Shown here: piece after piece, positions 12,928 to 63,153 of the stretch
Numbering within the stretch: position 1 is the first letter of the stretch
Layout of the letters: each line of letters starts with the position of its first letter
Assembly (NCBI GenBank): GCA_024276125.1
Contig: JAJRXT010000100.1
Location: 45,329 to 109,328, forward strand
Reading direction: 5' to 3'
DNA: 64,000 bases
DNA from: a bacterium
GTDB lineage: Bacteria > SZUA-182 > SZUA-191 > JAJRXT01
Notes under the pieces: generated by a model
The model's input: the letters and a program-made list of their open reading frames with translations, nothing else
What the model was told of the DNA's origin: nothing
Databases searched by the model: none
Translations under genes and position numbers: made by a program

Positions 12928-13689
12928 TTATTTGTCTTTAGGCGCTTTTCGCTGATAATTTGCAGCCGGCAAAACAATAGAAAAAGTAGTTCCCCTGCCG
13001 ACTTCGCTTTCTACTTTTATAGTGCCATTATAACTTTTTATAATAGAATAAGAAATAAACAGTCCCAATCCCGTTCCGTCAAAACCCTTAGTGGTAAAAA
13101 ACGGTTCAAATAGATAGTTCATATCCTCGGGTTTGATCCCCTGACCATTATCTGAAATTACGATTTCCACCAAATTGTTAATGGTTTTACTGCTGGCGCT
13201 TACTGTTTCTGTATCTTTTATATTTTTAGGCTGTAAAATTTGACGAGTACAGACGTGAAGTGCGCCTCTTTCAGTCATAGCGTCTTCTGCATTTTTGATA
13301 AGATTCATCAACACTTGGGTAATCTTGGTACGTGGAATCATAATAAGCGGATTGCTCTTATCCAAATCAAGCTCTATCTTAATACCCCTTTTCATTAGCT
13401 GGCTAAAGGCAATTGAAAAGATATGACTGCTTATTATTTCATTTATATTGATAATCTCATGACCGGCCTCATCCATTTTGGCGTGGTCTCTTAACTGCTG
13501 TACAATATGGGCTATGCGCTCCACCTCTTCGCTTATTGAATGCAGATTTTCCATCATTGGATTAGTGGGTTCTACCTGACTTTTTAAGAATTCTACATCC
13601 AATGAGATAATATTTAATGGATTATTTATTTCATGAGCCACACCTGCTGCCAGTTTGCCCAAGGCCGCCAATTTTTCCGCTTGGCTAAT
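12928..13689 (-). CDS. histidine kinase core (HisKA+HATPase), C-terminal part of an interrupted REC-PAS-HK gene
   Basis: H-box AHEINNPL, then DNGQGI and GTGLGL boxes. Same frame as ORF 13690-14442, separated only by TAG at 13690-13692. No RBS or sensor domain of its own. Confidence 0.75.
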   Translation of the reverse strand: MSQAEKLAALGKLAAGVAHEINNPLNIISLDVEFLKSQVEPTNPMMENLHSISEEVERIAHIVQQLRDHAKMDEAGHEIININEIISSHIFSIAFSQLMKRGIKIELDLDKSNPLIMIPRTKITQVLMNLIKNAEDAMTERGALHVCTRQILQPKNIKDTETVSASSKTINNLVEIVISDNGQGIKPEDMNYLFEPFFTTKGFDGTGLGLFISYSIIKSYNGTIKVESEVGRGTTFSIVLPAANYQRKAPKDK

Positions 13690-14442
13690 CTATTGCATGA
13701 TTTTGGTTCTGCGGGTTAAATCTTCAATTATCAGCATAATAGACTTTGGCTTGCCGTCTTTAAAAACAATCGGTTTTAAATAACATGACAGGATAAAATC
13801 TTTTTTGTTAACCGGAGAATAAAACTTAACATCTTCTTTACAAGCATCTTCGCCGCTTACAGCCTGCTTAAGACAGCTTACAAGGTTTGCCTGCAAGATT
13901 CCGGGCAAGTCAGTAAAATTTTGCCCCAATACATGTAAGTCGCCCCAAAGCTTTTTACTCATCGCCGGATTAGCAGTAGTAACTACTCCCTTGCTGTTTA
14001 ATAGAAACATGCCGATATTGGCCAAAATGGTTTCCATTTTATTTACTTCCAGCATTTTAATATCGGTTTCGCGTTTTTGGACGCCTTTTTTGACGCGCAA
14101 GATCAGCTCGTCTTTTCCGCAGGGTTTCATTATATAGTCAAAGGCGCCTTTTTGCATAGCTTGCACGGCGGAAGACAAAGAGCCATAACCGGTAATAATA
14201 ATTACTACAGTTTCAGGTGAAATACGCTTAATTTCTTCTAAAAGACGCAGTCCGTCAATATCTTCCATTATAAGGTCTGTAAGCACCAGATCAAAATCGG
14301 AATTCTTTTGTACTATATCCAAAGCTTGCCGGCCATTTTGAGCTGTTTGTATTTGGTAGCTCATCGGCTCTAATATCCGCTCGATATTTGTTCTGACTAT
14401 TTCTTCATCATCCACAATCAAAACTTTTGGTTTAACAATCAT
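13690..14442 (-). CDS. response-regulator receiver + PAS, N-terminal part of an interrupted hybrid kinase
   Basis: VLIVDDEEIV...DLVLTDLIMEDIDG...KP receiver motifs followed by a PAS-like segment. Ends at an in-frame TAG. Confidence 0.75.
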   Translation of the reverse strand: MIVKPKVLIVDDEEIVRTNIERILEPMSYQIQTAQNGRQALDIVQKNSDFDLVLTDLIMEDIDGLRLLEEIKRISPETVVIIITGYGSLSSAVQAMQKGAFDYIMKPCGKDELILRVKKGVQKRETDIKMLEVNKMETILANIGMFLLNSKGVVTTANPAMSKKLWGDLHVLGQNFTDLPGILQANLVSCLKQAVSGEDACKEDVKFYSPVNKKDFILSCYLKPIVFKDGKPKSIMLIIEDLTRRTKIMQ

Positions 14443-14523
14443 TATTAACCATCTCCTAGTATTACAATGCTACAGAACATAAAAAAATGGCTACTTTAGT
14501 TAACTCCGAAAATAATTACATTT

Positions 14524-14607
14524 TGTCATTCTTAAGGCCAAAAGCCGAAGAATCTGCTCGCATACGAGGACAGATTCTCACTCCACTCCGTTTCGTTCAG
14601 AATGACA
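14524..14607 (+). repeat. Family-A nested palindrome, copy 10
   Basis: Termini and inner stem intact. Followed by the 53-bp module 14608-14660, which recurs at 26823-26875 (51/53 identical). Confidence 0.9.
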
Positions 14608-14964
14608 GCTAATAAAATTAAACAGCTTTGGTTTCGCAAGAGAACTCTAGCAGCCATTTAAAAAATTACCGCTCTAGTTATGGTATAAAATTTTTGTTTC
14701 ATTAATGACATAAAAACAAAAGATGTTAAAGTTTTTTTACAATCCCTAAACAAAATATTTAGCCCGTATTATTCAAGTTAGTCTTACGCCTAATAAACTT
14801 ACTCCCTATTTTTATTTTAGCTGATTTTTTCGCAAAATAGAAGTAATTTTATTCAATAGTCAAAACGAATGCACTAGTCAAAGTATAAACAACACTATGA
14901 ATGCGCAATATAAAGTATGGGCGTAAACCTTGAACACAACATACAGTATATATTTTATATTTAT

Positions 14965-15034
14965 GTTTCGGTATGTCTCATGCCGAAACTATTGCTCACC
15001 GCCAAGTGTGTTTCTGGGTGAGACATCCCGAAAC
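14965..15034. repeat. Family-B hairpin doublet (subfamily B1)
   Basis: GTTTCGGTATGTCTCATGCCGAAAC, the linker TATTGCTCACCGCCAAGTGT, then GTTTCTGGGTGAGACATCCCGAAAC. Confidence 0.85.
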
Positions 15035-15087
15035 ATACACCTGACCCGCCTTGTATTTCATCTCACATTTAAGCAGAATTATTCAGG

Positions 15088-19260: not shown

Positions 19261-19473
19261 TCATCCTATATTATATTTTTTGATTATTACTTCCGAACCA
19301 TTTTCTACTTTAACTCTATTTATTATATTATTAGAAAATGAATTATTTTTTAAATATGAATAGGCATGCTTGTTAATAACAATACAGCTACATCCGTCAA
19401 CCATACATCTTTTAACTTTTCTATAGGCATCATAGCCAACAGTATATTGGTTACACTTAGGACATTTTTCCAT
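19261..19473 (-). CDS. small zinc-ribbon protein (hypothetical)
   Basis: 70 aa, CPKC...C..C motif. Overlaps the end of the deaminase ORF by 17 nt. AT-rich. Confidence 0.35.
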   Translation of the reverse strand: MEKCPKCNQYTVGYDAYRKVKRCMVDGCSCIVINKHAYSYLKNNSFSNNIINRVKVENGSEVIIKKYNIG

Positions 19474-20380
19474 TATTTTCTCCCGTTAACTTATTTAAAT
19501 CCTTTAACTTTTGAGATGCAGAGCTTTTTATATACCTGCCCCTATGCCTGAATATCCAATTAAATGACAATGACTTAACTCCTTCAAATATCTTTATTTC
19601 TATAGCATTATCAAACAATATCTCATAGGCTTCTTTAACTGGATACGGTTCAACAAAAACCACTTTCCTTATCCCTGCATTTACAATTTTCTTTGCACAT
19701 AGCATACAAGGAAATGTCGTTGTAAAAATTATTGTATTTCCACCATTACCAAAATACGGATTAGCTAAAATGGCATTTTCTTCAGCATGAAGTGAGCGAC
19801 AAAGGTCTAATTTTTTGTTTTGCGGTAACAATTCTAGCAAATTTCTCTTGCACTTATTACAATTGAGCGGTTTGCTTGCTTCCGCGTAAGATATTTTATT
19901 TCCGCACAAAGGACAAAAATTCCAGTGAGTTAATTCAAAACTTGCTATTTCTTTTCTCTTTCTGAAACATTGACTATATAACTCATAGCATGACTCGCTG
20001 TTTCGAGGTGGAGCATTGTATCCAGCAGACAATATACAATAATTAACATCAGTAATTACAGCGCCTACTTGTCTTTGAATACATGAAGAATGAAGGCTGT
20101 AAGAATATGCCAAGTGCATAATCATTTCCTCTTCATCCGGCGCTCTATATGGTTCTTTTAGCAATCGTATATAATTATAAAGCTTGCTAAAAAACTGAAA
20201 AGCACTGTCAAGAGTATTCCAATGTGTTGAATTGTCAATTACTATATCAGCTTGGTTTACACATTTTCTCCCCTTTATCTCGTTTATCAGCCAGTTCAAA
20301 TCCTTTTTCGCTATTTTTTCGTCGTTGCCTTTCTTCTTTTGGTGCATATACGGCAAGTAAATAAAAATGAGAATATTCAT
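19457..20380 (-). CDS. CMP/dCMP-type zinc deaminase domain (C-terminal part of a frameshifted kinase-deaminase gene)
   Basis: HAEENAI and PCMLCAKKI zinc-binding motifs, with a CxxC...CxxC insert. The upstream part of the ORF overlaps the kinase ORF in another frame. Confidence 0.7.
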   Translation of the reverse strand: MNILIFIYLPYMHQKKKGNDEKIAKKDLNWLINEIKGRKCVNQADIVIDNSTHWNTLDSAFQFFSKLYNYIRLLKEPYRAPDEEEMIMHLAYSYSLHSSCIQRQVGAVITDVNYCILSAGYNAPPRNSESCYELYSQCFRKRKEIASFELTHWNFCPLCGNKISYAEASKPLNCNKCKRNLLELLPQNKKLDLCRSLHAEENAILANPYFGNGGNTIIFTTTFPCMLCAKKIVNAGIRKVVFVEPYPVKEAYEILFDNAIEIKIFEGVKSLSFNWIFRHRGRYIKSSASQKLKDLNKLTGENNGKMS

Positions 20381-20687
20381 TTCTTAACATATCAATTTCT
20401 ATAGGATTTCTAAAACATTCTATTACAATAGGCTCATTCTTATTTTCTATTAATCCAAGAAGCTTTGTTTTGTAATCTTTACGCAATTCGTTATTTTCTC
20501 TGACCTTATTACCAAAATTCTGTTTTTCTTCTATTGAATCAAATTGGTCATCTTTTTGTGCTAAAGGCTTAAGTATATCTTGGCTAATAGATATCCTATT
20601 ATATCCGTGTTCCTTTTCTAAATGTTTTGCAATAGTTGTGCAACCGCTTCCTAATGATCCTGTTAAACCTATAATAAATTTAGACAT
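20247..20687 (-). CDS. P-loop nucleotide-kinase-like domain (N-terminal part of a frameshifted kinase-deaminase gene)
   Basis: GLTGSLGSGCTT Walker-A-like loop (Cys where Lys is expected). The frame switches to the deaminase ORF near the T4 run at 20264-20267. Confidence 0.65.
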   Translation of the reverse strand: MSKFIIGLTGSLGSGCTTIAKHLEKEHGYNRISISQDILKPLAQKDDQFDSIEEKQNFGNKVRENNELRKDYKTKLLGLIENKNEPIVIECFRNPIEIDMLRNEYSHFYLLAVYAPKEERQRRKNSEKGFELADKRDKGEKMCKPS

Positions 20688-20740
20688 AAATTTGTTATAT
20701 CCAATTAGACATATTATATTGTTTGTTCTTTTATTGAACC

Positions 20741-21364
20741 CTAATGTCCGCGGACAATATCCTTAACCTTCATCAGCCGGGTCAGATTAGAGCGTTCCAG
20801 TTCCTCCAGCCGCATGGTTATACTTTTAACCCCTTCTTGTAAGCTTGGAATAAGTACATACTCCAAGGCATTAACCCTGCGGCGGGTTTTTTCAATCTCA
20901 CCGGCTAAAAGCTCAATACTTTTTTCTTTTGCAGCTACTTCTACCATTAAGGGCAGGGCTTTGGCAAATAAATTAAAGGAATCATCCAGCTCAATAGCGG
21001 TTTCAGCAAAACCGTAATGATAAAGATCAATATCTTTATTAACCGAAAGATCGGGAACCTCAATATTCATAATAGTTTTTTTACCGGCTGTAATCTGAAT
21101 TAAATCTTTAGGGACAATTAAGGCTTCTTCTATGTTTGCAGGCGGCATAACCGCTCTGGCCAATAAAAATCCGCTTAAGGCATCAGCTATGGCTTGTTCC
21201 ATTTGGTCTCTTAGTCCTTTATAATCCTTTATCAGCTCCAAAAACCGCCGCATTAACTCATCAAATTTGTCTTTTAACAATTTATGACCGCGTTTGGCTA
21301 ATGCTGTCCGTTTTTTTAATTTCAAAAGCTGCATTCTGGTTGCGCTGTATTGAATTTTAGCCAT
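20741..21364 (-). CDS. ntpD: V-type ATP synthase subunit D
   Basis: 207 aa. MAKIQYSATRMQLLKLKKRTALAKRGHKLLKDKFDELM is the canonical V/A-ATPase D N-terminus. No A/B subunit genes are adjacent. Confidence 0.8.
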   Translation of the reverse strand: MAKIQYSATRMQLLKLKKRTALAKRGHKLLKDKFDELMRRFLELIKDYKGLRDQMEQAIADALSGFLLARAVMPPANIEEALIVPKDLIQITAGKKTIMNIEVPDLSVNKDIDLYHYGFAETAIELDDSFNLFAKALPLMVEVAAKEKSIELLAGEIEKTRRRVNALEYVLIPSLQEGVKSITMRLEELERSNLTRLMKVKDIVRGH

Positions 21365-26909: not shown

Positions 26910-26979
26910 GTTTCGGGATGTCTCATCCCAAAACACCCGGCCGGTAAACAATTTATTTCGGGGTGAGACATCCCGAAAC
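26910..26979. repeat. Family-B hairpin doublet (B1)
   Basis: GTTTCGGGATGTCTCATCCCAAAAC, a 20-nt linker, then ATTTCGGGGTGAGACATCCCGAAAC. Confidence 0.85.
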
Positions 26980-27018
26980 ATAAAAACATCTAGGCAAAAA
27001 AACTTACACAATACCGCT

Positions 27019-27160: not shown

Positions 27161-27167
27161 GGTTTAT

Positions 27168-27192
27168 GTTTCGGGGTGTCTCACCCCGAAAC
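27168..27192. repeat. Family-B hairpin, single
   Basis: GTTTCGGGGTGTCTCACCCCGAAAC, about 15 nt downstream of the proS stop. Confidence 0.85.
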
Positions 27193-32482: not shown

Positions 32483-33040
32483 ATGATAAAAAGTATGACC
32501 GGTTACGGTCATGGAAGCTATGCTGATGAAGGCTTAGGCATTGAAATAGAAACTAAATCTATTAATCACCGCTATTGTGATATAAGTATTCGTATGCCTA
32601 AAGAACTAATGTATTTAGAACATAAAATCAGAAAAATTATACAAAAACGTTTTTTTAGAGGGCATTTTGATGTTTGGATTAAAGTCGAATGGCCGGCGCA
32701 AAACAGGAAAAAATTCAAAATTGACTATTTATTGGCTGATGAATATCTAAAGGAATTAAGCAATCTAAAGCAACAATTGGGCTTAATCGGAGAAATAGAT
32801 ATAGAAATTTTCTTAAGAAATTCTCAAATGTTTCTTAATTTAGAAGAAGACAGAACCTTTGTCGATATTTCTTCACAATTGCAAGCTGCCCTAAATAACG
32901 CCTTGGATTCTTTATCCAGTATGAGGAATCAGGAAGGCCGGACGATATGTGAAGAGATACAGGGTATCCTAAAAGAATTAACAGAGATTATCGCCCAAAT
33001 AGAAAAAGTATCTCCCCAGCTGGTTACCCGCTACAAATAA
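32483..33040 (+). CDS. yicC: YicC family protein, N-terminal part (gene interrupted by in-frame TAA)
   Basis: MIKSMTGYGHG start typical of YicC. TAA at 33038-33040; the frame continues into 33041-33361. Confidence 0.75.
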   Translation: MIKSMTGYGHGSYADEGLGIEIETKSINHRYCDISIRMPKELMYLEHKIRKIIQKRFFRGHFDVWIKVEWPAQNRKKFKIDYLLADEYLKELSNLKQQLGLIGEIDIEIFLRNSQMFLNLEEDRTFVDISSQLQAALNNALDSLSSMRNQEGRTICEEIQGILKELTEIIAQIEKVSPQLVTRYK

Positions 33041-36759: not shown

Positions 36760-36907
36760 TTGTTTTTGCAAGAACAATCTACCTGCGAGCTGTTGTTTTA
36801 AATATGGTATAGGCGCCAGATTTTTTCCTTTTTATGGCAATGATGTACCACATAAAAAAATAACTCGCTGGATTATACCGGCTGTAACAATATGTACAAT
36901 TTTTATT

Positions 36908-38164: not shown

Positions 38165-38416
38165 ATGGCTAAAGTGGTAGCTATGACCGGTAATATTGCA
38201 GCAGCTAATGCCATGCGTCAGATTAATCCCGATGTATGCGCCGCCTATCCTATCACCCCTTCCACTGAGATAATGCAGCAGTTTGCCAGCTTTGTGGCCG
38301 ACGGCGAGGTAAATACGGAATTAGTGGCAGTAGAAAGCGAGCATAGCGCAATGAGCGCATGTATCGGCGCGGCTGCCGCAGGCGGACGTGTAATGACCGC
38401 AACTTCTGCTAATTGA
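38165..38416 (+). CDS. porA: 2-oxoacid:ferredoxin oxidoreductase alpha subunit, N-terminal part (in-frame TGA)
   Basis: MAKVVAMTGNIAAANAMRQINPDVCAAYPITPSTEIMQ...MTATSAN, then TGA at 38414-38416. Confidence 0.85.
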   Translation: MAKVVAMTGNIAAANAMRQINPDVCAAYPITPSTEIMQQFASFVADGEVNTELVAVESEHSAMSACIGAAAAGGRVMTATSAN

Positions 38417-39348: not shown

Positions 39349-39603
39349 ATGGATAAGACAATCTGCTTTACTGCTGAATTCCTAAAAGACGGGCGCTTTT
39401 CCGTTCCCCAAAAGATTATAAACAACCTATGTCTTAAAACAGGGGAAAAAGTGAAGCTAATTATAGAAAAAAAGCGATTTGATTAGGAAAATTTTTTAAC
39501 ACTTTTTGGTATCTGGCATAACAAAAATGCAAAAGAAATCAATCTTTATCGGAATATCATAAAATAAAGAAAGAATTTCGGCAGAAAAGAGGTCAGGCTT
39601 TGA
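39349..39603 (+). pseudogene. vapB: AbrB/SpoVT-type VapB antitoxin with two in-frame stops
   Basis: MDKTICFTAEFLKDGRFSVPQKIINNLCLKTGEKVKLIIEKK. TAG at 39484-39486 and TAA at 39565-39567. The frame ends in TGA overlapping the vapC TTG (TTGA). Confidence 0.55.
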
Positions 39604-40004
39604 TATACTGTCTGGATACTGATATTTTAATTGAGTATTTCCGGGGAAATAATGTAGTAAAAAACAAGATAGAATCCCTTTCCGAACACGATAATATAGG
39701 TATCACTTGGTTTTCTTTTTATGAATTTTTCAAAGGTATATTTATTAGTGGAAAATTAGAGGAAGAAAGCTTTTTAAATGCTTTGCTTGATTATACTGTT
39801 ATACTTGAAGCTTCTTATTACTCAAGTAAAATCGGCGGAGATATTTATGCTGCTTTTTAAAAAAAAAGGGGGCAATTAATCAATGACGCCGATATCTTAA
39901 TTGCCAGTATTGTAAAAAGCTATCAGGCTATTTTAGTTACCAACAATGAAAAACATTTCTCCAGAATAGATGATTTGCAAATTAAAAATTGGTTAAAAGA
40001 CTAA
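39600..40004 (+). pseudogene. vapC: PIN-domain VapC toxin with an in-frame TAA
   Basis: (M)IYCLDTDILIEY...AAF, TAA at 39858-39860, then KKRGQLINDADILIASIV...VTNNEKHFSRI in the same frame. Confidence 0.65.
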
Positions 40005-40760: not shown

Positions 40761-41147
40761 ATGGAAATATCTTCTTGGTTAAATAGCAGAAAGAAAATCT
40801 CTTTTGAAAACAAAGAAATCGTTGAAAGATGGTTGTGTTCGCTTAAAAATTATATTCCCAAGCCAGCAGGAGCGCAAAGATCATGTTGCAGAGAGTTATA
40901 TGCTTTAACGAAATATTTAAACGCTGGTTTAAAAAATAATCTGCTTGATTTTCCATTTTGCATTGCTAAAAAGGAATGTCCAGATTTTATTATTGAACTA
41001 AGTGACAAAACGACAATAGGTTTGGAACACACAGAAGCTACAACCGAAAACCTCAAACAAACACTTGCAAAGTGGAGAAAACAACCAAAAGAAGCTTATG
41101 CTATGGAAACTAGCGCAAATGAGAGTCACTTAGTGCCTTCTGGATAA
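40761..41147 (+). CDS. hypothetical, possible PD-(D/E)xK nuclease-fold protein, N-terminal part (in-frame TAA)
   Basis: CPDFIIELSDKTTIGLEHTEA resembles a D...E.K-type nuclease core. TAA at 41145-41147. Confidence 0.4.
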   Translation: MEISSWLNSRKKISFENKEIVERWLCSLKNYIPKPAGAQRSCCRELYALTKYLNAGLKNNLLDFPFCIAKKECPDFIIELSDKTTIGLEHTEATTENLKQTLAKWRKQPKEAYAMETSANESHLVPSG

Positions 41148-49420: not shown

Positions 49421-50295
49421 TGGCTAAATTGGGATACTTCCCAGGTTGTTCGCTGGAGCGCAGCGCTCATGAATACGACCAATCGAGCCGTTTGGTGTGT
49501 AAACGTCTGGGATTAGAACTACAATAAATACGCGACTGGTCATGCTGCGGAGCGCATGCCGCCCACCATACCCAGCATTTATTGGCGGAAGGTTTGAGCG
49601 CGCGCAACCTGTACAAAGCTGCAACGCAAGGCTTAAAGGAAATAATAGCTCCCTGTCCCGCCTGCTATAACCGCTTGAAATCCACCCAAACCGCGGTCAC
49701 AGAAAATCCTGAGCATAAAAAAGAATTAGCGGATAAGTTTGAGCTGGAATGGGAGGGGCAAATAAAGGTTTTCTCCCTGCTTGAATATCTGGCAAAACTA
49801 CCCCCTGATGAGATTAAAAAGTGGGTCAGGATTGATCTATCCAAGCTTAAACTCGTAGCCTATTACGGCTGCCTGCTGGTGCGTCCGCCCAAGCTGGTAC
49901 AGTTTGATAATCCCGAAGACCCAACATCTATGGATGATTTATTAACCTTAGTCGGCGCCGATATGCTCCCTTGGGACTATAAAGTGCAGTGTTGCGGGGC
50001 GGCGCTTGCCATAAGCAACCCAAAAATTCAGCATAAATTAGGCGGCGATATTTTAGAACTTGCAGCCGCCGGCGGAGCGCAAGGAATTGCAGTCGGCTGT
50101 CCCTTATGTCACGTCAATTTGGACTTAAGGCAGAAACAGATTAATGACAGCAGAAAAACCAATTTTAATTTACCGATATTCTATTTTACTCAAATACTGG
50201 GACTGGCCTTCGGCTTTAAACCCCATTACTTGGAAATAGATAAACATATGGTGGATGCAATGCCATTATTAATTAAAACAGGTATAATAAAATGA
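49420..50295 (+). CDS. hdrB: heterodisulfide reductase subunit B-like (two CCG domains), interrupted by an in-frame TAA
   Basis: ATG overlaps the hdrC stop (TAATG). MAKLGYFPGCSLERSAHEYDQSSRLVCKRLGLELQ, TAA at 49525-49527, then IRDWSCCGAHAAHH... in the same frame. Second CCG motif is KVQCCGAALA. Confidence 0.8.
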
Positions 50296-53666: not shown

Positions 53667-53677
53667 TATAATATGAT

Positions 53678-53703
53678 GTTTCGGCTTGAAGACAAGCCGA
53701 AAC
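53678..53703. repeat. Family-B hairpin, single
   Basis: GTTTCGGCTTGAAGACAAGCCGAAAC, 12 nt after the hdrA stop. Confidence 0.85.
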
Positions 53704-53720
53704 ATCAAACTTAAGGTAAC

Positions 53721-53804
53721 TGTCATTCTGAACGAAGCGAAGCGCAGTGAAGAATCTACATACATATGCAAGTAGATTCTTCGGCCTACGGCTTCAGAAT
53801 GACA
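53721..53804 (-). repeat. Family-A nested palindrome, copy 19
   Basis: Termini and inner stem intact. Confidence 0.9.
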
Positions 53805-53848
53805 GGCTAAGAAAAACCTTTTTAGTACAGGGTGTTCTTAAGTCAGGT

Positions 53849-53873
53849 GTTTCGGGATGAAACATCCCGAAAC
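53849..53873. repeat. Family-B hairpin, single
   Basis: GTTTCGGGATGAAACATCCCGAAAC. Confidence 0.85.
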
Positions 53874-53943
53874 ATAAATCTTAATAAATAACTCAAGTTG
53901 CTACCTATAGGTTTATTTTTAGAAATATTTGGTTTTACATGGC

Positions 53944-54028
53944 TGTCATTCTGAACGAAGCGGAGCGCAGTGAAGAATCTCCTCCTATATAGCGAGTAGA
54001 TTCTTCGGCCTTCGGCCTCAGAATGACA
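53944..54028 (-). repeat. Family-A nested palindrome, copy 20
   Basis: Flanked by inverted CAAGTTGCTACCTATAGG / CCATAGGTAGCAACTTGG modules. Confidence 0.9.
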
Positions 54029-54089
54029 AAAATGGATAACTTCACCATAGGTAGCAACTTGGGTTAAATAACCAGGGGCTGAGCTGAAA

Positions 54090-56051
54090 ATGAAAATAGG
54101 GGTCTTTATATGCCATTGCGGTAATAATATTGCCGCTACTGTAGATGTGGAAAAAGTCGCAGAATATGCCCTAAGCCTGCCCGAGGTGGTCTGTGCGGTT
54201 ACTATTGAACATGCCTGCTCCGAACCGGGTCAAAATATAATACGCCAGGCTATAGAGCAAAAAGGTCTTGACCGAGTGGTAATCGGCGCCTGTTCTCCGC
54301 GTATTCATGAAACCACCTTTCGCAAATTAGTGGCTGCCTCCGGTTTAAATCAGTATTTGCTGGAGATTGCCAATTTACGCGAGCAATGTTCCTGGGTGCA
54401 TGAAGATATAATATCTGCCACTATAAAAGCTAAAGAACTTATCGGCATGGCAGTAGCCAAAGTCACGCGTCAGCAAGCCTTAACTTCGGGTAAAGTAGGC
54501 GTTAATCAGCGTACCTTAGTCATCGGCGGAGGTATTGCCGGCATTCAGGCGGCGCTGGATATTGCCGAGGCCGGCTATGAGGTGGTATTAGTGGAGCGCA
54601 GCCCCAGTATCGGCGGTAATATGGCCAGAATGGATAAAGTTTTCCCCACTTTTGATTGTTCAGCTTGTATCTTATCGCCCAAAATGGTGGAAGCTGCCGG
54701 CCACCCCTTAATTACACTACAGACCTATTCGGAAATAGAATCCGTATCCGGTTTTATAGGGAATTTTACAGTTAATATAAGGCAGAAGGCGCGGCTTATT
54801 GATACCAAAAAATGTACCGGCTGCGGCGCCTGCACCCTAAAATGCCCGGTTAAGATTCCTTCGGAATTTAACCTGGGGCTAGATAAATGCGGGGCGGTAT
54901 ATATACCGTTTCCCCAGGCGGTTCCGCATATACCGGTTATAGATAAAGAGCATTGCAGGTATGTATTAAACGGCAAATGCGGTCTATGCCAGAAAATTTG
55001 TCCTACCGGCGCCATTGATTATGAGCAGGAAGATGAATTGCACGAGGAAGAATTCGGGGCTATTGTGGTTGCCACGGGTTACAAGCAGGTGGACTGGAAA
55101 CCTTATACGGAATATGGTCATGGTAAGTATCCCGATGTGATTACCAGCCTGCAATATGAAAGATTACTCTCAGCCTCAGGTCCTACCGGCGGGCGCTTAA
55201 AGTGTATCTCAGACGGCAGGGAGCCTGAAGTTGTGGCCATTATCGCTTGTGTGGGATCGCGGGATGAGCTTTTAGGCCGCCCGTACTGCTCAAGTGTATG
55301 TTGTATGTACAGCGCTAAATATGCTATACTAACCCATGAACACCTGCCTGATACTAAGGTATATATATTCTATATGGATATCAGGGCTACCGGTAAAATG
55401 TACGAGGAATTTGTACGCCGCGCTCAGGAAAAATATGACGCCCGCTATGTACGCGGGCGCGTATCCAAAATTTATAAGAAAGGCGGACGGCTGATATTAC
55501 AAGGCGTGGATACCATCTTGGGTCAGTCGGTGGAATTAGAGGCTGATCTGGTGGTATTAGCTGCCGGGATTACATCCTCTTCAGGCGCTATCAAATTGGC
55601 TAAAAAATTGAATATAACACATGATCAGTATGGTTTTTTTACGGAAAGTCATCCCAAGCTGCGACCGGTGGAGTCCAGTACGCCCGGTATTTTTATTGCC
55701 GGCGCCTGTCAGGCGCCTAAGGATATTCCTTTAACCGTGGCACAAGCCAGTAGCGCCGCCAGCAAGGTAGTAGCGCTGATTGGTCATGAAGAGCTGGAAA
55801 CCTCGCCCATGGTGGCTGAAGTAAATATGAGAAGGTGCGTAGGCTGTTTTCGCTGTCAGGAGGTCTGCCCCTTATCTGCTATCCAAGAGGAAACCCTGCG
55901 GGATGGAACTAAAGTAGCCAAGGTAAATGCAGCGGTATGCCAGGGTTGCGGCGTATGTAATGCCACCTGCCTGCCCGGGGCTATTTCATTAAAAGGCTTT
56001 ACGGACGATGAATTGTTGGCTGAAGTAAAAAGCTTATGCGATGTTAAGTGA
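54090..56051 (+). CDS. hdrA: heterodisulfide reductase subunit A (canonical length)
   Basis: 653 aa. FICHCGNNIA, GGGIAGIQAALD FAD motif and several 4Fe-4S CxxCxxC motifs. Paralog of the N- and C-terminal parts of 50292-53666. Confidence 0.85.
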   Translation: MKIGVFICHCGNNIAATVDVEKVAEYALSLPEVVCAVTIEHACSEPGQNIIRQAIEQKGLDRVVIGACSPRIHETTFRKLVAASGLNQYLLEIANLREQCSWVHEDIISATIKAKELIGMAVAKVTRQQALTSGKVGVNQRTLVIGGGIAGIQAALDIAEAGYEVVLVERSPSIGGNMARMDKVFPTFDCSACILSPKMVEAAGHPLITLQTYSEIESVSGFIGNFTVNIRQKARLIDTKKCTGCGACTLKCPVKIPSEFNLGLDKCGAVYIPFPQAVPHIPVIDKEHCRYVLNGKCGLCQKICPTGAIDYEQEDELHEEEFGAIVVATGYKQVDWKPYTEYGHGKYPDVITSLQYERLLSASGPTGGRLKCISDGREPEVVAIIACVGSRDELLGRPYCSSVCCMYSAKYAILTHEHLPDTKVYIFYMDIRATGKMYEEFVRRAQEKYDARYVRGRVSKIYKKGGRLILQGVDTILGQSVELEADLVVLAAGITSSSGAIKLAKKLNITHDQYGFFTESHPKLRPVESSTPGIFIAGACQAPKDIPLTVAQASSAASKVVALIGHEELETSPMVAEVNMRRCVGCFRCQEVCPLSAIQEETLRDGTKVAKVNAAVCQGCGVCNATCLPGAISLKGFTDDELLAEVKSLCDVK

Positions 56052-56062
56052 GGAACTGTCAC

Positions 56063-56149
56063 AAAATAAGTTGAGCATTTTAACGCTAAGATTTAGCTTA
56101 GATTCAGACGATTTGATAAAAGCAAAATTATCGAATTAGCGCTACTAGT
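56063..56149. repeat. Family-F ~90-bp repeat, copy 2
   Basis: Matches 47827-47917. Starts 12 nt after the hdrA2 stop. Confidence 0.8.
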
Positions 56150-56181
56150 ACATTGTTTCAATAAAATGTATACATTTCTTT

Positions 56182-56266
56182 TGTCATTCTTAAACGAAAT
56201 GAAGTGGAGTGAAGAATCTGTCTGCGTATGCGAGTAGATTCTTCGGCTTATCGCCTCAGAATGACA
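56182..56266 (-). repeat. Family-A nested palindrome, copy 21
   Basis: Termini and inner stem intact. Confidence 0.9.
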
Positions 56267-56308
56267 GCGTATGATAAGATTTCTAGCAAAGTTTAGGAGT
56301 GCGGTTTA

Positions 56309-56536
56309 ATGGCAAAAGATATAGTATCTGATATTCCTCCTGTTCTTTTAAATCAGTTGGATAAAATGATTAAGGATGGTCTTTATAAAACCAGAGTCGA
56401 AGCCATAAGGGAAGGGATAAGACTGCTTGTCCGAAAACGTGAAGTCAAGCGTTTAAGAGAAAAAATTAAAGAGATTAAACTTAATACCAAACACCTTCCA
56501 AATCTAAGCCAAGCAGTAGTAGAACAACATATATAG
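56309..56536 (+). CDS. ribbon-helix-helix (CopG-like) protein, probable antitoxin
   Basis: 75 aa. LDKMIKDGLYKTRVEAIREGIRLLV RHH pattern. Confidence 0.6.
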   Translation: MAKDIVSDIPPVLLNQLDKMIKDGLYKTRVEAIREGIRLLVRKREVKRLREKIKEIKLNTKHLPNLSQAVVEQHI

Positions 56537-56548
56537 GAGGTGGGTTTT

Positions 56549-56743
56549 ATGCCAATTCCAGCTATACAAGGGATTTGTCATAATGGCAAGATAGAAGCAT
56601 TAGAAGATATACCATATAAGGAAGAGAAAAAAGTTTTAATCATTTTTTTGGATGATACAGAAGATAAAGCATGGGATGAAGCGGTTGCCGAAGATTTTTT
56701 GAAAGGATATTCAAAAAACGATGCAGCCTATGACAAACTATAA
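56549..56743 (+). CDS. DUF104-like small antitoxin
   Basis: MPIPAIQGICHNGKIEALEDIPYKEEKKVLIIF. AGGAGG RBS upstream. Overlaps the mazF-like start. Confidence 0.5.
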   Translation: MPIPAIQGICHNGKIEALEDIPYKEEKKVLIIFLDDTEDKAWDEAVAEDFLKGYSKNDAAYDKL

Positions 56744-57056
56744 ACACGGGGATATATTATTGCTGAATTTCCCCTATAGCGAAGGGAATAGAAAAGCCAA
56801 AAGACCAGTATTAGTCTTAGCCCAAACAGACAAAGAAGATATTGTAGTGTCAAAAATAACCACTGCCGGACAAAGGGGTAATTATGATATTATTATAAAC
56901 GATTGGAACAAGGTCGGGTTGTTGTACCCCTCTGTCATAAGAATAGATAAACTGGCCACTCTGTCTAAATCCAGAGTTATCAAAAAATTAGGCTGCCTAA
57001 GTGACTCCTGTTCCCCCAAGGTAAAGCTTAAGCTAAAAAAATTGTTCAATTTATAG
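56721..57056 (+). CDS. MazF/PemK family toxin
   Basis: 111 aa. GDILLLNFPYSEGNRKAKRPVLVL...SVIRIDKLATL pattern. Confidence 0.7.
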   Translation: MQPMTNYKHGDILLLNFPYSEGNRKAKRPVLVLAQTDKEDIVVSKITTAGQRGNYDIIINDWNKVGLLYPSVIRIDKLATLSKSRVIKKLGCLSDSCSPKVKLKLKKLFNL

Positions 57057-57127
57057 TTGGCTTTTTAAGCGATATAGACTGGTGTAGTTTTTAATAATAC
57101 TAGAACAACAAGAAAAGTGGAGAAGCT

Positions 57128-57532
57128 ATGCAAAGCGAACCCCGTATTATAGGTTTTTTATGTAATTGGTGCTCTTATGCTGGCGCCGATATGGCCGGTA
57201 CCAGCCGGCTTAAGCAGCCGGCAAGCGTACGTATTATCCGCCTGCCGTGTACCGGCAGGATAAATCCGCTCTTACCGCTTAAAGCGCTGGTGGACGGAGC
57301 AGACGGCGTATTGATTTCCGGCTGTCACCCGGGTGACTGCCATTATCGCGAGGGCAATTTATACGCCAGACGCAGGCTGGAGCTGCTGCATCGTTTCCTG
57401 CCATTTGTGGGTATTGATCCCAAACGCCTGCGCTACGTCTGGGTTTCCGCATCAGAGGGACAGCGCTGGCAAGCTATTGTAGGCGAGTTTACCGAGCAAA
57501 TAAAAAAACTGGGAACTGCTAAAGCTCAATAA
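57128..57532 (+). CDS. mvhD: MvhD/FlxD-like [2Fe-2S] electron-transfer protein
   Basis: 134 aa. IIGFLCNWCSYAGADMAG...LPCTGR...ISGCHPGDCHY motifs. Confidence 0.85.
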   Translation: MQSEPRIIGFLCNWCSYAGADMAGTSRLKQPASVRIIRLPCTGRINPLLPLKALVDGADGVLISGCHPGDCHYREGNLYARRRLELLHRFLPFVGIDPKRLRYVWVSASEGQRWQAIVGEFTEQIKKLGTAKAQ

Positions 57533-57559
57533 TTTGGCTTTTTCAAGGAGATATAATAA

Positions 57560-58528
57560 GTGAAAGATATCCTGGCAGAACTTAAGAAAAAAGCAGCCGA
57601 AATTTTACCCGAAGTAAGCTATTTTATCTGCTATGGGAGCGGGTTTGACCTATTGCATAGCGCCCCTTTGTTTGTTAAAGATAAAGGCGATATAGACAGG
57701 CTGGTTTTAAACCGTTTTTGTATACATAATTTGACCAGCTATCTTCCGCCTCAAAAATGGCCGCCAGGCTGGCTGCTTGAGCCGGGAGAAAAGATTGGTC
57801 TGGTTCTTAAAGGGTGTGATTCCAGATCGGTTATTCATTTGCTTGCTGAAAAGGCAATTCTCCGCAGTCGCGTAATTATCATAGGACTGCCCTGCTGGGG
57901 AATGATTGATGTTAATAAATTGCGTAATAGAATTGATATTAACCGCATAAATCGTGTTGAACAGGACAAAGAAAGTATCATGCTCTTTACTGATGCTAAT
58001 GAAGTATCGGCTGATATTAAGGATATATTGTATGATAAGTGTATAAATTGTCAATATCCCAATACGCTGATTTCCGATCATTTTATCGGCGCAAAAAAAG
58101 AGCCGGACAAAGGTGTGCAGCCATTCGGCAAGGTACTGGAATTAGAGCGGATGAGTTTACTTGAGCGTTCTGCGTTCTGGGATAAGGAGTTTGCCCGCTG
58201 CATTCGCTGTAAGGCCTGCCGCAATGTTTGTCCGGTATGCTATTGTCAGAATAATTGCTTACTGGATACCAGAGTGCCTCATTGGATAAAAGAGCGGGTT
58301 GATGCAAACAGCAACCGCTGGTACCATCTTATTCGGGCGTTTCATCTGGCCGGACGCTGCACGGAATGCGGCGAATGCGCACGGGTTTGCCCTATGCGCA
58401 TACCGATTAATCTGTTAGCCATGAAAATGAACAGCGAGTTATTTGAGCTGTTTGGCTTCCGTTCGGGGATAGATGTGAATATAAAACCACCGCTTATGAC
58501 CTTTCAGTTGGAAGAAGACAAGTTGTAG
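57560..58528 (+). CDS. iron-sulfur protein, FlxC-like
   Basis: 322 aa, GTG start. CIRCKACRNVCPVCYC and CTECGECARVCP clusters. Confidence 0.6.
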   Translation: MKDILAELKKKAAEILPEVSYFICYGSGFDLLHSAPLFVKDKGDIDRLVLNRFCIHNLTSYLPPQKWPPGWLLEPGEKIGLVLKGCDSRSVIHLLAEKAILRSRVIIIGLPCWGMIDVNKLRNRIDINRINRVEQDKESIMLFTDANEVSADIKDILYDKCINCQYPNTLISDHFIGAKKEPDKGVQPFGKVLELERMSLLERSAFWDKEFARCIRCKACRNVCPVCYCQNNCLLDTRVPHWIKERVDANSNRWYHLIRAFHLAGRCTECGECARVCPMRIPINLLAMKMNSELFELFGFRSGIDVNIKPPLMTFQLEEDKL

Positions 58529-58564
58529 CGGCTCGGGGTCAGGGACGACTACCAGAACATAACC

Positions 58565-58648
58565 TGTCATTCTGAGGCCGGAGGCCGAAGAATCCGCTCG
58601 CATATGGGATTAGATTCTTCACGCCACTTCGTTTCGTTCAGAATGACA
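58565..58648 (+). repeat. Family-A nested palindrome, copy 22
   Basis: Termini and inner stem intact. Lies between flxC-like and flxB-like genes. Confidence 0.9.
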
Positions 58649-58720
58649 GCTATCTTAAGTCAACAACATCGGGGTCGTCTCTGACTTCGATGACCGGTAG
58701 ACTATATAGAGGATAAAGAT

Positions 58721-59761
58721 ATGCCGAAGGCTATAATGCAGGATAAATTAAATGATTGGCTGGATTCTATTGCCAGTAAATACCAGTTGTGGGCGCCTCA
58801 GGATAAAGACGGCGCTTGTCTGCTTTCTCCGTATACACCCGGAGCGCCGGTTAATCTTAAATGCAGGCCGCAGCTTTCAGCCAAAAAAGCGCTCTTTCCT
58901 CAAACTGAATGCCTGCTTAAATATCAGTATCATAAAGACAAAAGCAAGCCGGAGGAAACCGAGCTTAGCATAAGCGCCGCTAACCCCAACCAAAAAACAG
59001 TAATTTGGGGTATAGCGCCATGCGATGTATCCGGGATTTCTTTTTTTGAGAATGTATTTATCGGTGCGGGTTATCAGGACACTTATTTTAAAACCCGCCG
59101 CAGCAATACTCTGATTGCAGCTATAGCTTGCCAACATGCTGAGAGTACCTGCTTTTGCGAGGCTGTAGGAGGTTCTCCGGTAAGCGCGCCTGATGCTGAT
59201 CTGCTGCTTACCCGCATTGACCATGAATATGTTGTTGAGGCTCTTACTAACGAGGGCGCTACCCTGATAGACGAGGGTTTGTTTACTACAGTGGAAGAGG
59301 CCAAATTAAATGCTATGCAGCAAGTCAAGGAAGCCGCTTTAAGTAAGCTTTCAAAACCATTTGAATTAGGCAGTTTGCCGTCTGTGGCCGATAAATTTTT
59401 AAAGGCATTTGAATCGCCCTATTGGAAAGAGGCCACCGCCGCTTGTCTTAGCTGCGGTATCTGCACCTTTGTCTGTCCTACGTGTTATTGCTTTAATATT
59501 ACCGATGAGGCGCAAGGTATGCACGGGCAGCGGCTGCGCTGCTGGGATGCTTGTATGTTTTCTACTTACACCTTGGAGGCCAGCGGTCATAATCCGCGTA
59601 ATATAAAGTTTCAGCGCTATCGCAACAGACTGAGTCATAAATTCAGCTATCTCATTACCAATAATAATGTATTAGGCTGTACAGGCTGCGGTCGATGTAT
59701 TAAAGAATGCCCGGTGGGTATTGATTTGCGCTCTATAATAAGCCATATTTTAGCCGAATAG
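58721..59761 (+). CDS. 4Fe-4S dicluster protein, FlxB/AsrA-like
   Basis: 346 aa. CLSCGICTFVCPTCYC and CTGCGRCIKECP motifs. Confidence 0.65.
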   Translation: MPKAIMQDKLNDWLDSIASKYQLWAPQDKDGACLLSPYTPGAPVNLKCRPQLSAKKALFPQTECLLKYQYHKDKSKPEETELSISAANPNQKTVIWGIAPCDVSGISFFENVFIGAGYQDTYFKTRRSNTLIAAIACQHAESTCFCEAVGGSPVSAPDADLLLTRIDHEYVVEALTNEGATLIDEGLFTTVEEAKLNAMQQVKEAALSKLSKPFELGSLPSVADKFLKAFESPYWKEATAACLSCGICTFVCPTCYCFNITDEAQGMHGQRLRCWDACMFSTYTLEASGHNPRNIKFQRYRNRLSHKFSYLITNNNVLGCTGCGRCIKECPVGIDLRSIISHILAE

Positions 59762-59794
59762 ATTACTATATCTTTCTATAATAGGTTTTAAGGT

Positions 59795-59878
59795 TGTCAT
59801 TCTGAGGCTGGAAGCCGAAGAATCTCTCAGCCTACGCGAGCAGATTCTTCACTGCGTTTCGCTTTGTTCAGAATGACA
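59795..59878 (+). repeat. Family-A nested palindrome, copy 23
   Basis: Preceded by the TATCTTTCTATAATAGGTTTTA module. Confidence 0.9.
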
Positions 59879-59896
59879 ACTAGAAGGGGATGATAA

Positions 59897-60760
59897 ATGA
59901 TAACTAATGGCAAGAAATACGAAGGTCCCGGCGGGAATCCTTATATACCGATGCTGGCTACGGTAACAAAATTATATTCGGAAACGCCCAATATTAAATC
60001 CTTACATGTAGTTTTAGATGACAAAGAACAAATGAAACATGTTTCTTTTGAGCCGGGTCAAGTAGCGCAATTATCCTTATTTGGTTCAGGCGAGTCCACC
60101 TTTGTAATAAACTCTTCTCCTTTGGCAAAAGAACATTTACAATTTACTATCATGAAGACCGGAGAGGTAAGCGGCGCTTTTCACGACTTATCCGAAGGGG
60201 CAAAAATCGGTCTGCGCGGTCCATTGGGTAATTGGTTTCCTTATCAGCATATGGAAGGTAAAAATATTGTTCTGATTGCAGGCGGCTTGGGGCTTGCTCC
60301 CTTACGGCCTTTTATGTTTTATCTTTTGGCTAACAGACATAAATATAAAAACATTCAGCTTATTTATGGCGCCCGCAGTCCGGGTGATTTATGTTACAGC
60401 CAAGACTGGACAATTTGGAGGGAGCATGATAGCAAGGTAAAAATCACCTTAACTATTGATCGCGATGTACCCGGCTGGGAATACAAAGTGGGGTTTGTTC
60501 CTACTATAGTAAAAGAGGAAGCCCCGTCGGCAGAAAATACCATAGCGGTCACCTGCGGTCCGCCGATTATGATAAAATTTGTGCTGCAAGAGCTTGAAAA
60601 ATTGGGCTTTGCCCCTGAGCAGATTTATACCACTTTAGAGCGGCGGATGAAATGCGGGTTGGGCTTATGCGGACGCTGTAATATAGGCCCTAAATATGTC
60701 TGTATCGACGGACCGGTATTTTCACTTGCGGAATTAAAGGCTTTACCCAATGAGTTATGA
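59897..60760 (+). CDS. FAD/NAD(P)-binding oxidoreductase with C-terminal [2Fe-2S], FlxA/AsrB/PyrK-like
   Basis: 287 aa. Ferredoxin-reductase fold (LIAGGLGLAPL) and a C-terminal CGLGLCGRC...C cluster. Confidence 0.7.
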   Translation: MITNGKKYEGPGGNPYIPMLATVTKLYSETPNIKSLHVVLDDKEQMKHVSFEPGQVAQLSLFGSGESTFVINSSPLAKEHLQFTIMKTGEVSGAFHDLSEGAKIGLRGPLGNWFPYQHMEGKNIVLIAGGLGLAPLRPFMFYLLANRHKYKNIQLIYGARSPGDLCYSQDWTIWREHDSKVKITLTIDRDVPGWEYKVGFVPTIVKEEAPSAENTIAVTCGPPIMIKFVLQELEKLGFAPEQIYTTLERRMKCGLGLCGRCNIGPKYVCIDGPVFSLAELKALPNEL

Positions 60761-61395: not shown

Positions 61396-61463
61396 GTTTC
61401 GGTATGTCCCATGCCGAAACACCTAGCGGTGAGCATTGGTTTCGGGGTGAGACACCCTGAAAC
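61396..61463. repeat. Family-B hairpin doublet (B1)
   Basis: GTTTCGGTATGTCCCATGCCGAAAC, an 18-nt linker, then GTTTCGGGGTGAGACACCCTGAAAC. Confidence 0.85.
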
Positions 61464-61551
61464 ATAAACATAACAAGACACTTCAAAACATAAAAGGCAA
61501 ACTTTTGCTCAAATTAATTCCCGAATTATTCGGGTAAAGAGGTGATCCAAT

Positions 61552-61953
61552 ATGAAAACACGGGATATAATGACCAAAGATGTAGTAATGGTGGATGAGA
61601 ATGTCAGTGTAGCCAAGGCTATGAGTATTATGACAAAAAATAATGTTAGCAGTTTAATTGTAAATCGGACAAATGAAGATGATGCTTATGGTATTGTAAC
61701 CAGACGGGATGTAGTAAATAAAGTTGTATCTGAAGATAGTGACCCTCTAAAACTTAAAGTAGCCGATATAATGACCAAACCGGTGCTTACCATTTCACCG
61801 AATTTATCTATACAGCATGTGGCCAAGCTGATGGTACATACCGGCGTGCGTCGTATGCCGGTATTCGATGGACATAGAACTATAGGTATCGTATCAAATA
61901 GCGATATTTTCCGGGGTTTTTACCGATATTTGAATGATGAAGATGAGTTTTAA
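61552..61953 (+). CDS. CBS domain pair protein
   Basis: 133 aa with two CBS repeats (IMTKDVVMVDENVSV..., IMTKPVLTISPNLSI...). Confidence 0.75.
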   Translation: MKTRDIMTKDVVMVDENVSVAKAMSIMTKNNVSSLIVNRTNEDDAYGIVTRRDVVNKVVSEDSDPLKLKVADIMTKPVLTISPNLSIQHVAKLMVHTGVRRMPVFDGHRTIGIVSNSDIFRGFYRYLNDEDEF

Positions 61954-62082
61954 GTTAATCTCGAATAACCTCAAAAACAATCAAGGCTTACGTAAGCCAT
62001 AATATATCATATAGGGGGTAGGTTTTAAACCTACCCCCTCCTTGGGAAGGGACAAGTCCCAATGTTATTGATTTAAGGAAAT

Positions 62083-62310
62083 TGTCATTCTGAACTAAGA
62101 GGCTGTGTCGCAACCGGAAAAACTGCTTTTTTTCTGTCATTCTCACGAAGGTGGGAATCCATAACTTCTTGAAAAAGCTGGGTTCCTGCCTTCGCAGGAA
62201 TGACAGATTGAGAGCATTTTTCAGGTTATAAGCAGTTGTAACACGAAGCGCAGTGAAGAATCTACCTCCATACGCGAGCAGATTCTTCAGCCTCCGGCTT
62301 CAGAATGACA
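62083..62310 (-). repeat. Family-A copy 25 split by a 149-bp insertion (62096-62244) that itself carries a 71-bp type-3 hairpin element (62135-62205)
   Basis: TGTCATTCTGAAC | TAAGAGGCTGTGTCGCAACC... [TGTCATTCTCACGAAGGTGGGAATCC...GGTTCCTGCCTTCGCAGGAATGACA] ...GGTTATAAGCAGTTGTAACAC | GAAGCGCAGTGAAGAATCT...TTCAGAATGACA. Confidence 0.8.
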
Positions 62311-62346
62311 GCTAATGGTATCTTTTTTTACGAAACGCTCCACCGG

Positions 62347-62820
62347 TTACTTACCCGATTTGGCGCACCTGAAACCCACATTCTCATCATCAGTAAGCGG
62401 GGTAAATTTACTGCGCATAGTGGTTACAGAGTCGTAATTGGCATCTAAATATGACCCGCCGCGCAATACATAGCGCTCTTTTCCATAAAATTCATCTGGA
62501 TGCGCATTTCCAGGATAGGGCAGGTAATTATCTGCCGTCCACTCCCAAACATTGCCGGCCATATCCATAAGACCGTAAGGACTGGCGCCTTTTTTGAAAC
62601 TACCCACTTTTGCGATACCCTTTTTGCGTGATTTTTCATAATTTAAATTCTTACGGTTAAACTTATCTCCCCATGGGAATATCCGCTCATCAGTTCCGCG
62701 GGCGGCCTTCTCCCATTCCGGCTCGGTAGGCAAGCGTTTACCCGCCCATTCGCAATAGGCCACCGCAGCTTTCCAATTAACATATACAACCGGATGTTTG
62801 GCTTTACCCTTGGGGATATC
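62347..62820 (-). CDS. FGE/SUMF1 family protein, C-terminal part
   Basis: Same frame as 62821-63153. [42 protein letters not shown] and RGGSY motifs. Confidence 0.75.
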
Positions 62821-63153
62821 TCATCCGCCTTCTTCTTCCCAATGAAGTGGTACTGCGGCGCCTGTGGCGTCTACAAATTTTTTATACTCTTCATTAGTGA
62901 CTTCATATTTATCAATATAAAACGCGTCTAAATTAACTTTATGGGCGGGAGTAGCGCTGTCGTGATACTTTTTCATTCCACCTAAGGTACCAACTACTTC
63001 TTTTAACTTTGCTTCGCTTAAACCCATAGTACACTCACCGGCGGGAATAAGCGCCATATCTTCCGCTTCTGCCTTGGCAGACAAAATAAGCAGTAAACCA
63101 CAGAATAACAAAATAAAACCATTTTTGAACATACAAGCCTCCTTTAGAACCAT
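62821..63153 (-). CDS. FGE/SUMF1 family protein, N-terminal part ending in an in-frame TGA
   Basis: Signal peptide, then LDAFYIDKYEVTNEEYKKFVDATG. TGA at 62821-62823. Confidence 0.75.
   Translation of the reverse strand: MVLKEACMFKNGFILLFCGLLLILSAKAEAEDMALIPAGECTMGLSEAKLKEVVGTLGGMKKYHDSATPAHKVNLDAFYIDKYEVTNEEYKKFVDATGAAVPLHWEEEGG

Follow-up and report, generated by a model that had tools for sequence, protein, structure and literature searches.

Nonsense codons outnumber frameshifts among interrupted genes on a contig of the bacterial lineage SZUA-182

We examined a 64,000-nucleotide (nt) stretch of DNA (hereafter the window; positions 45,329 to 109,328 of contig JAJRXT010000100.1, assembly GCA_024276125.1, bacterial lineage SZUA-182) in which genes that otherwise look functional are interrupted by in-frame stop codons. 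Ten of the approximately 80 genes in the window are affected (about 1 in 8): stops occur in eight genes and one-base frameshifts in the others (Table 1). A sequence-only reading had listed nine in-frame stops of all three types (TAG, TAA, and TGA), and we found every one of them in place, in frame, and followed by an open downstream frame. Each lies inside a single gene, based on domains or full-length homologs that cross the site. A search of the window for further nonsense sites found none.

Among the interrupted genes are a hybrid histidine kinase, yicC, porA, hdrB, and a gene with an FGE-sulfatase domain. In the kinase, the stop falls in a 15-residue linker between the PAS (144-246) and HisKA (261-325) domains, and 19 orthologs are single proteins of about 505 amino acids (aa) each. 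Relatives of yicC encode 292 aa with no interruption, and porA is intact across the stop site in more than 160 homologs. Near the porA stop, codons 88-92 (38426-38440) read MWERLY, compared to MWEML[YF] in about a dozen relatives and in homolog P0244; this was not counted as damage because the column is not 90% conserved across the full homolog set. For yicC and hdrB, for which aligned homologs were available, the end of the frame coincides with the end of the homologs. As the earlier reading had claimed, translational coupling is kept: hdrC and hdrB overlap at TAATG, and hdrB and hdrA overlap by 4 nt, based on open reading frame (ORF) coordinates. The FGE stop sits in a variable loop of a gene that has two paralogs elsewhere in the window. 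The three copies share 62-77% DNA identity in conserved blocks, and only the middle one has a stop.

The remaining lesions are in toxin-antitoxin, defense, lipoprotein, and unclassified genes. Two stops interrupt vapB and a third interrupts vapC. The vapB gene starts 3 nt past the end of porA and overlaps the start of vapC. A Pfam search with vapB gave no family match; we read it as a putative AbrB-type antitoxin with an AbrB-like N-terminal half and a toxin-binding tail. The ORF of approximately 244 aa that had been called nuclease-like has no counterpart in Pfam or PADLOC, yet it shows a continuous match across the stop with 257 homologs (E ≤ 0.001), of which those aligned are 200-280 aa long. 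The clear frameshift, proposed at 20264-20267, is borne out, since the product obtained by joining the two frames near 20264 aligns with the PADLOC dCTPase model without a break (residues 3-387, E = 8e-83). The affected gene encodes a kinase fused to a deaminase and is of the dCTP-deaminase anti-phage type. Directly upstream of it, in the same minus-strand region (19457-21364), is a complete gene for V-type ATPase subunit D, with a full-length match to Pfam ATP-synt_D and no other V-ATPase genes nearby. The frameshift that had only been suspected, in a run of seven A residues, is also confirmed: with one A inserted, a gene that has a paralog close by regains its start codon and the lipoprotein signal peptide MAMMYHIKKITRWIIPAVTICTIFILCAC.

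Other candidate interruptions were rejected. TAG 56534, considered as a tenth nonsense site, separates two distinct antitoxin genes. Four ORF pairs considered as frameshifts (179-998, 35702-36390, 40009-40708, and 45028-45689) were instead read as toxin-antitoxin or HEPN/nucleotidyltransferase pairs of the ordinary kind. The pair at 35702-36390 has an identical 58-nt overlap in the closest relative, L161; the other three were judged by reading the sequence and from one weak Pfam match.

Table 1. Interrupted genes and other features of the window (window coordinates, strand in brackets where given).
Feature	Position	Lesion or content	Lesion position	Remark
Hybrid response-regulator/PAS/histidine-kinase gene	12928-14442 (-)	TAG stop, codon 251	13690..13692	
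yicC	32483-33361 (+)	TAA stop, codon 186	33038..33040	YicC_C domain (173-292) spans stop
porA	38165-39346 (+)	TGA stop, codon 84	38414..38416	Invariant Gly replaced
vapB	39349-39603 (+)	TAG stop, codon 46	39484..39486	Frame open on either side
vapB	39349-39603 (+)	TAA stop, codon 73	39565..39567	Second vapB lesion
vapC	39600-40004 (+)	TAA stop, codon 87	39858..39860	PIN domain (3-125) spans stop
'Nuclease-like' ORF, ~244 aa	40761-41495 (+)	TAA stop, codon 129	41145..41147	
hdrB	49420-50295 (+)	TAA stop, codon 36	49525..49527	CCG domain (5-87) spans stop
FGE-sulfatase-domain gene	62347-63153 (-)	TGA stop, codon 111	62821..62823	Domain (30-265) spans stop
dCTP-deaminase anti-phage defense gene	19457-20687 (-)	One-base frameshift, short G4/A4 run	20250..20275	
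Lipoprotein gene	36834-37321 (+)	One-base deletion, A8 to A7, near gene start	36854..36860	
Lipoprotein paralog	37498-38118			
V-type ATPase subunit D gene	20741-21364			
Other FGE-sulfatase paralogs	25871-26638, 63170-63943			
Insertions in por operon	35406-38164, 39347-42271			~2.8-2.9 kb each
Redox gene cluster	48857-60760			
Type II DNA methyltransferase gene	3495-5075 (-)			PADLOC MTase_II, E=4e-228
Palindromic repeat copies	1926-2038, 6537-6626, 9799-9888, 14522-14611, 29011-29123, 33441-33553, 53709-53821, 56171-56283, 58563-58652, 59793-59882, 62215-62327, others			
Second hairpin repeat copies	15006-15051, 26951-26996, 27164-27209, 29120-29165, 43373-43418, 53845-53890, 61435-61480, others			

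At least seven of the lesions are also present in the public NCBI record. Truncated products of the kinase, yicC, porA, 244-aa ORF, FGE, and dCTPase genes have exact NCBI-sourced entries, all from one 131,340-bp contig. These include the N-terminal 250 aa of the kinase, both halves of yicC, 83-aa and 306-aa fragments of porA, 128 aa of the 244-aa ORF, and the N-terminal 103 aa of FGE. Thus, the lesions were not introduced downstream of the record. Exact look-up of repaired versions (porA with Gly, hdrB with Glu, the kinase with Gln, yicC with Glu, Gln, or Lys, the 244-aa ORF with Glu, and FGE with Gly) found none on record. No relatives in GTDB genomes, JGI metagenomes, or a 5.8-billion-protein collection exceeded 83% (porA), 72% (HdrA fusion), or 72% (kinase) identity.

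The density of stops is far outside that of comparable sequences. As a baseline we used recR, porG, porD, porA, and porB from 164 other public contigs, in which there is one true internal stop in 665 gene instances (158,636 codons); it occurs in the porB homolog of contig L052 (CSEAVIVR*ALLASPYP). The nine stops in the window fall in approximately 17,600 codons (0.05%), about 80 times the baseline. In L161, the syntenic 21-kb locus has 25 called genes, all of normal length. Genes broken by nonsense mutations are already well known, as are assemblies with spurious stops; what is unusual here is the density of lesions and the dominance of substitutions over indels.

Comparison with homologs points to what some of these codons were before the change. 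The porA stop column has Gly in all 172 homologous stretches (GGT in 59, GGG in 45, GGC in 34, and GGA in 34), suggesting a GGA to TGA lesion (G>T). In hdrB, the CAA TAA of the window corresponds to CAA GAA in the nearest relative (L162), which suggests GAA to TAA (G>T); the residue in this column of solved HdrB structures is Asp or Pro. In the kinase, 14 of 19 orthologs have Gln and five have Lys, and the closest orthologs read VMQQISQAEKL, with R or G at one position in a few, so that CAG to TAG (C>T) is the probable change. In all three genes, the stop is one step from the sense codon of the homologs. Glu is the commonest residue at the stop column of the 244-aa ORF (13 of 47), and relatives of yicC have GCA, GCG, or GTA, with GAA in three distant homologs; GAA to TAA would be compatible with both. 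Overall, the ancestral codon could be inferred at three of the nine stops, and all three are single GC-to-AT changes, although such changes make up only 39% of the nonsense opportunities in these genes. The direction agrees with the general mutation bias of bacteria.

The lesions are not spread evenly. The earlier reading described a window-wide pattern; the lesions are there, but four of the nine stops fall in the island formed by vapB, vapC, and the 244-aa ORF, which accounts for 3% of nonsense opportunities (P = 1e-4), and vapBC alone holds three of the nine (P = 1.7e-4). This distribution fits pseudogenes of different ages rather than uniform error. Both frameshifts are in accessory genes, one a defense gene and the other a lipoprotein paralog. 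The window contains no N and has 209 runs of A or T of at least 6 nt, with only two frame breaks. Thus, the window is unlikely to be unpolished sequence from an indel-prone platform (nanopore, 454, or Ion Torrent). We saw no shared motif around the stops of the kind expected from a methylation-linked systematic miscall. The lineage is more AT-rich than its nearest relatives: the GC content at third codon positions (GC3) of orthologs is 0.32-0.50 in the window vs. 0.45-0.73 in the three closest relatives.

The genomic setting shows a proliferation of repeats. An intergenic palindromic repeat of approximately 90-110 nt, which resembles a miniature mobile element, occurs in about 20 copies in the 64 kb (about one per 3 kb). 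The repeat is built of terminal inverted repeats (CTGTCATTCTGA ... TCAGAATGACAG), an inner stem (GAAGAATCT ... AGATTCTTC), and a variable loop; its folding is strong (z = -4 to -5), and Rfam has no match for it. Occurrences of its terminal motif number 41 in the window, 0-1 in the 83 kb from close relatives, and five in the 2.07 Mb of all fetched loci, so the expansion is lineage-specific. A second, short hairpin repeat (TGTTTCGGGGTG-N3-CACCCCGAAACA) has at least nine intergenic copies, often adjoining the larger repeat.

Toxin-antitoxin cassettes are inserted within operons. In most aligned homologous loci, porG, porD, porA, and porB are contiguous, while the operon in the window is split by two insertions that carry HEPN/nucleotidyltransferase pairs, vapBC, and a PIN pair (toxin-antitoxin cassettes), along with two lipoprotein paralogs. 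As in the window, L161 has a HEPN/nucleotidyltransferase pair between porD and porA (L161:9215-9903). Locus L001 has a vapC-like gene after porA (L001:10345-12173), followed by a duplicated 34-aa 3' end of porA (L001:10775-10876). The hdrB gene is part of a large redox gene cluster, which we read as probably comprising hdrC, hdrB, a 1124-aa fusion of HdrA with a GltD-like NADPH oxidoreductase (nearest relatives 72% identical), a second hdrA (653 aa), an MvhD-like gene, and three putative iron-sulfur/flavin subunits. An inserted cassette with RHH, antitoxin, and MazF-like genes separates hdrA from the MvhD-like gene.

Two further features were noted outside these operons. Around 32066-32482, long ORFs change from nearly all on the minus strand to the left to nearly all on the plus strand up to about 62 kb, coinciding with the minimum of the cumulative GC skew. 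This region could be an origin of replication or just the point where divergent genes meet; no dnaA was found in the window. A full-length type II DNA methyltransferase is encoded near the left end, flanked by nucleotidyltransferase and RelE/Phd-like pairs, with no recognized restriction enzyme adjoining it.

The stops are very probably plain truncating point lesions, and explanations in which the interrupted genes still work fare poorly. A changed code or dedicated recoding (UGA as Gly or Trp, selenocysteine, pyrrolysine, or ciliate-like context-dependent stops) could appeal to the porA TGA at an invariant Gly and to the FGE TGA, which is preceded by two Gly, a superficial likeness to genetic code 25. 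However, there are only two TGA, two TAG, and five TAA codons in frame, and the same codons terminate 15, 16, and 39, respectively, of about 70 genes in the window, including xerC, which ends in TGA as previously reported. Reassigned codons occur in most genes and cease to terminate. The known cases (codes 4 and 25, recoded phages, and ciliates with context-dependent stops) resemble the window in having in-frame stops in functional-looking genes; in the window all three types are rare in frame and all terminate normally. The likeness to selenocysteine or pyrrolysine recoding is an in-frame TGA or TAG, but TAA is hit as well, and homologs have Gly at the porA TGA and Gln at the kinase TAG instead of Cys, selenocysteine, or Lys. 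Across the sites, relatives carry Gly, Glu, Gln, Ala, or Val, and no stops were found at these sites in relatives. Folding of 67-69 nt from three stops gave no RNA structure relative to shuffled controls (z = -1.7, +0.6, and +0.5), and no hairpins like those of the selenocysteine or pyrrolysine insertion sequences (SECIS or PYLIS) were found after these three stops. A code change is therefore excluded, dedicated recoding is not supported, and the chance that either accounts for the stops is negligible. A programmed frameshift in the dCTPase gene was likewise rejected, given that the restored one-frame product matches the PADLOC model continuously; for slippage in the lipoprotein gene the weaker test available was comparison with the paralog only. 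Alternatively, the stops may be real but tolerated, with readthrough by near-cognate or suppressor transfer RNAs (tRNAs) or weak release factors leaving the genes down-tuned, not dead. Belinky et al. (2021; PMC7918605) have argued for in-frame stops being widespread in bacterial genes under purifying selection and not always inactivating, and in the window the downstream halves are intact and coupling with neighboring genes is kept. However, a very recent lesion or an error would leave the downstream half just as intact, and the only tRNA in the window is a tRNA for Met, with no suppressor and no other Rfam family. Five of the nine stops are TAA, the least leaky stop codon. Together with the lack of conservation and structure at the sites and the normal use of terminators, this leaves the readthrough proposed earlier with no supporting sign, and we consider it improbable. 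Slightly more doubtful still is the broader possibility that the stops are real and full-length proteins are nonetheless made, whether by efficient readthrough or because many genome copies with intact alleles mask the nonsense ones.

If the stops truncate, they are either mutations or errors, and both of these candidates from the earlier reading remain live. We favor real mutations in the DNA of the organism, at a level of confidence that is evenly balanced. Several observations weigh against this. At about 140 per Mb, internal stops are far denser than is usual in a free-living bacterium, and the enrichment of stops in accessory genes is not significant by itself (P = 0.11-0.14). The core redox subunits porA and hdrB are hit while their partner genes are intact. 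Private changes are absent at 64 invariant columns of porA and 145 columns of the kinase, and also at the invariant columns of hdrB; vapBC, for its part, has three stops in one module. In relative-rate tests, the window lineage is no faster than its sisters in amino-acid changes (17 vs. 27 and 27 vs. 26 for the por cluster; 49 vs. 54 and 57 vs. 51 for HdrA), and thus the event is recent or not biological. In typical natural gene decay frameshifts are at least as common as stops, whereas here stops outnumber them 9:2. Where public assemblies contain too many internal stops, base miscalls are often the cause, and the internal stop count tracks assembly accuracy (Cooley and Wright, 2024; PMC11017572). 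A close second to real mutation is that most of the stops in genes hit once are mistakes that became fixed in the deposited consensus, with only vapBC, and perhaps the frameshift in the defense gene, being natural pseudogenes. Such errors could come from chemically damaged template (oxidized guanine or deaminated cytosine read as T) amplified from scarce DNA, or from miscalls at low depth. The stop excess would then be a signature of base miscalling rather than of indels, and the density relative to other contigs, the otherwise pristine condition of the hit genes, and hits to core genes at random positions (12% to 65% of gene length) would follow; no independent assembly of the organism was found in the searched collections to confirm the sites. 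G>T and C>T are also the classic products of oxidation and deamination. Of the candidates, error accounts best for the 9:2 ratio, the undamaged state of the genes apart from the stops, and the lesions in porA and hdrB. On the other side, 4.8% of random substitutions are nonsense, with about 15 missense changes expected per stop, so that if the stops sample random substitutions the error rate would be approximately 0.3-0.4% per base, far above the normal consensus for a 131-kb contig with near-perfect homopolymers. Such a load of hidden missense changes predicts about 4.4 private changes at 561 alignment columns of the kinase, the HdrA-GltD fusion, and the por cluster, counting columns with no deviating sequence or only one; two were found, both conservative Val/Ala swaps, a difference that is not significant in this underpowered test (P ~ 0.19). 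Clustering in the vapBC island is unexpected under uniform error, and the sites share no visible motif. Lower GC3 and the repeat expansion are lineage-specific changes beyond the reach of small error rates. Relative to the spurious pseudogenes of PMC11017572, the likeness lies in the excess of stops over frameshifts, the functional-looking genes, and the outlier status of the record; the differences are the high implied error rate, the accurate homopolymers, the clustering in one island, and the GC-to-AT direction of all determinable changes. A special case is that the stops are chimeric codons, arising where alleles from two strains assembled together are blended into one consensus. This would be allowed for by the probable source, an uncultured lineage assembled from a metagenome or from single cells, but the proposal fails for porA, where Gly is always GGN and no mixture of sense alleles yields TGA, and the hdrB (GAA) and kinase (CAG) stops differ from the codon of relatives at one base only. 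We regard such mixing as highly improbable.

If, as we favor, the lesions are real mutations, single GC-to-AT substitutions would have made the premature terminators, and two one-base slips in homopolymers would have added the frameshifts. Translation would end at each stop, leaving the affected genes null or nearly so. The lesions would differ in age: the vapBC module, with its three hits, and the frameshifted defense gene would be ordinary dead accessory genes, while the single hits in the kinase, yicC, porA, hdrB, the FGE paralog, and the 244-aa ORF would be very recent, in genes that are otherwise untouched. The setting would be a genome in flux, with AT-ward drift, a burst of palindromic repeats, and toxin-antitoxin cassettes inside operons. 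On this reading, the lesions would be present in cells, not merely in the record, and the hit genes would be ones that the organism can do without or for which its genome has a backup elsewhere. Nonsense and homopolymer-frameshift pseudogenes occur in lineages that have recently become niche-restricted. With bacterial pseudogenes, and with the stops described in PMC7918605, the window shares single-base sense-to-stop changes, uninterrupted homologs, frameshifts in short homopolymers, toxin-antitoxin and defense targets, one module with multiple hits, repeat proliferation, and AT drift. It differs from them in the ratio of stops to frameshifts, in having mostly single lesions without other damage, in the absence of any sign of long-term relaxed selection, and in that no insertion sequences were seen in the window.

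Regardless of origin, the affected genes should not be taken as evidence for a new genetic code. If the lesions are errors, the contig would be a clear example of a public assembly in which substitution errors or damaged template show up as internal stops, and metabolic reconstruction would be misled, for example by inferring that pyruvate:ferredoxin oxidoreductase or HdrB is missing. If full-length proteins were made after all, this would be a natural case of large-scale nonsense tolerance in core metabolic genes of an uncultured lineage. If the lesions are real, the lineage would be only just entering a burst of gene inactivation that has struck core redox genes, with AT drift and repeat expansion proceeding in parallel and with substitutions, rather than indels, breaking the genes. 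It would then be a useful natural case for studying the onset of genome decay.

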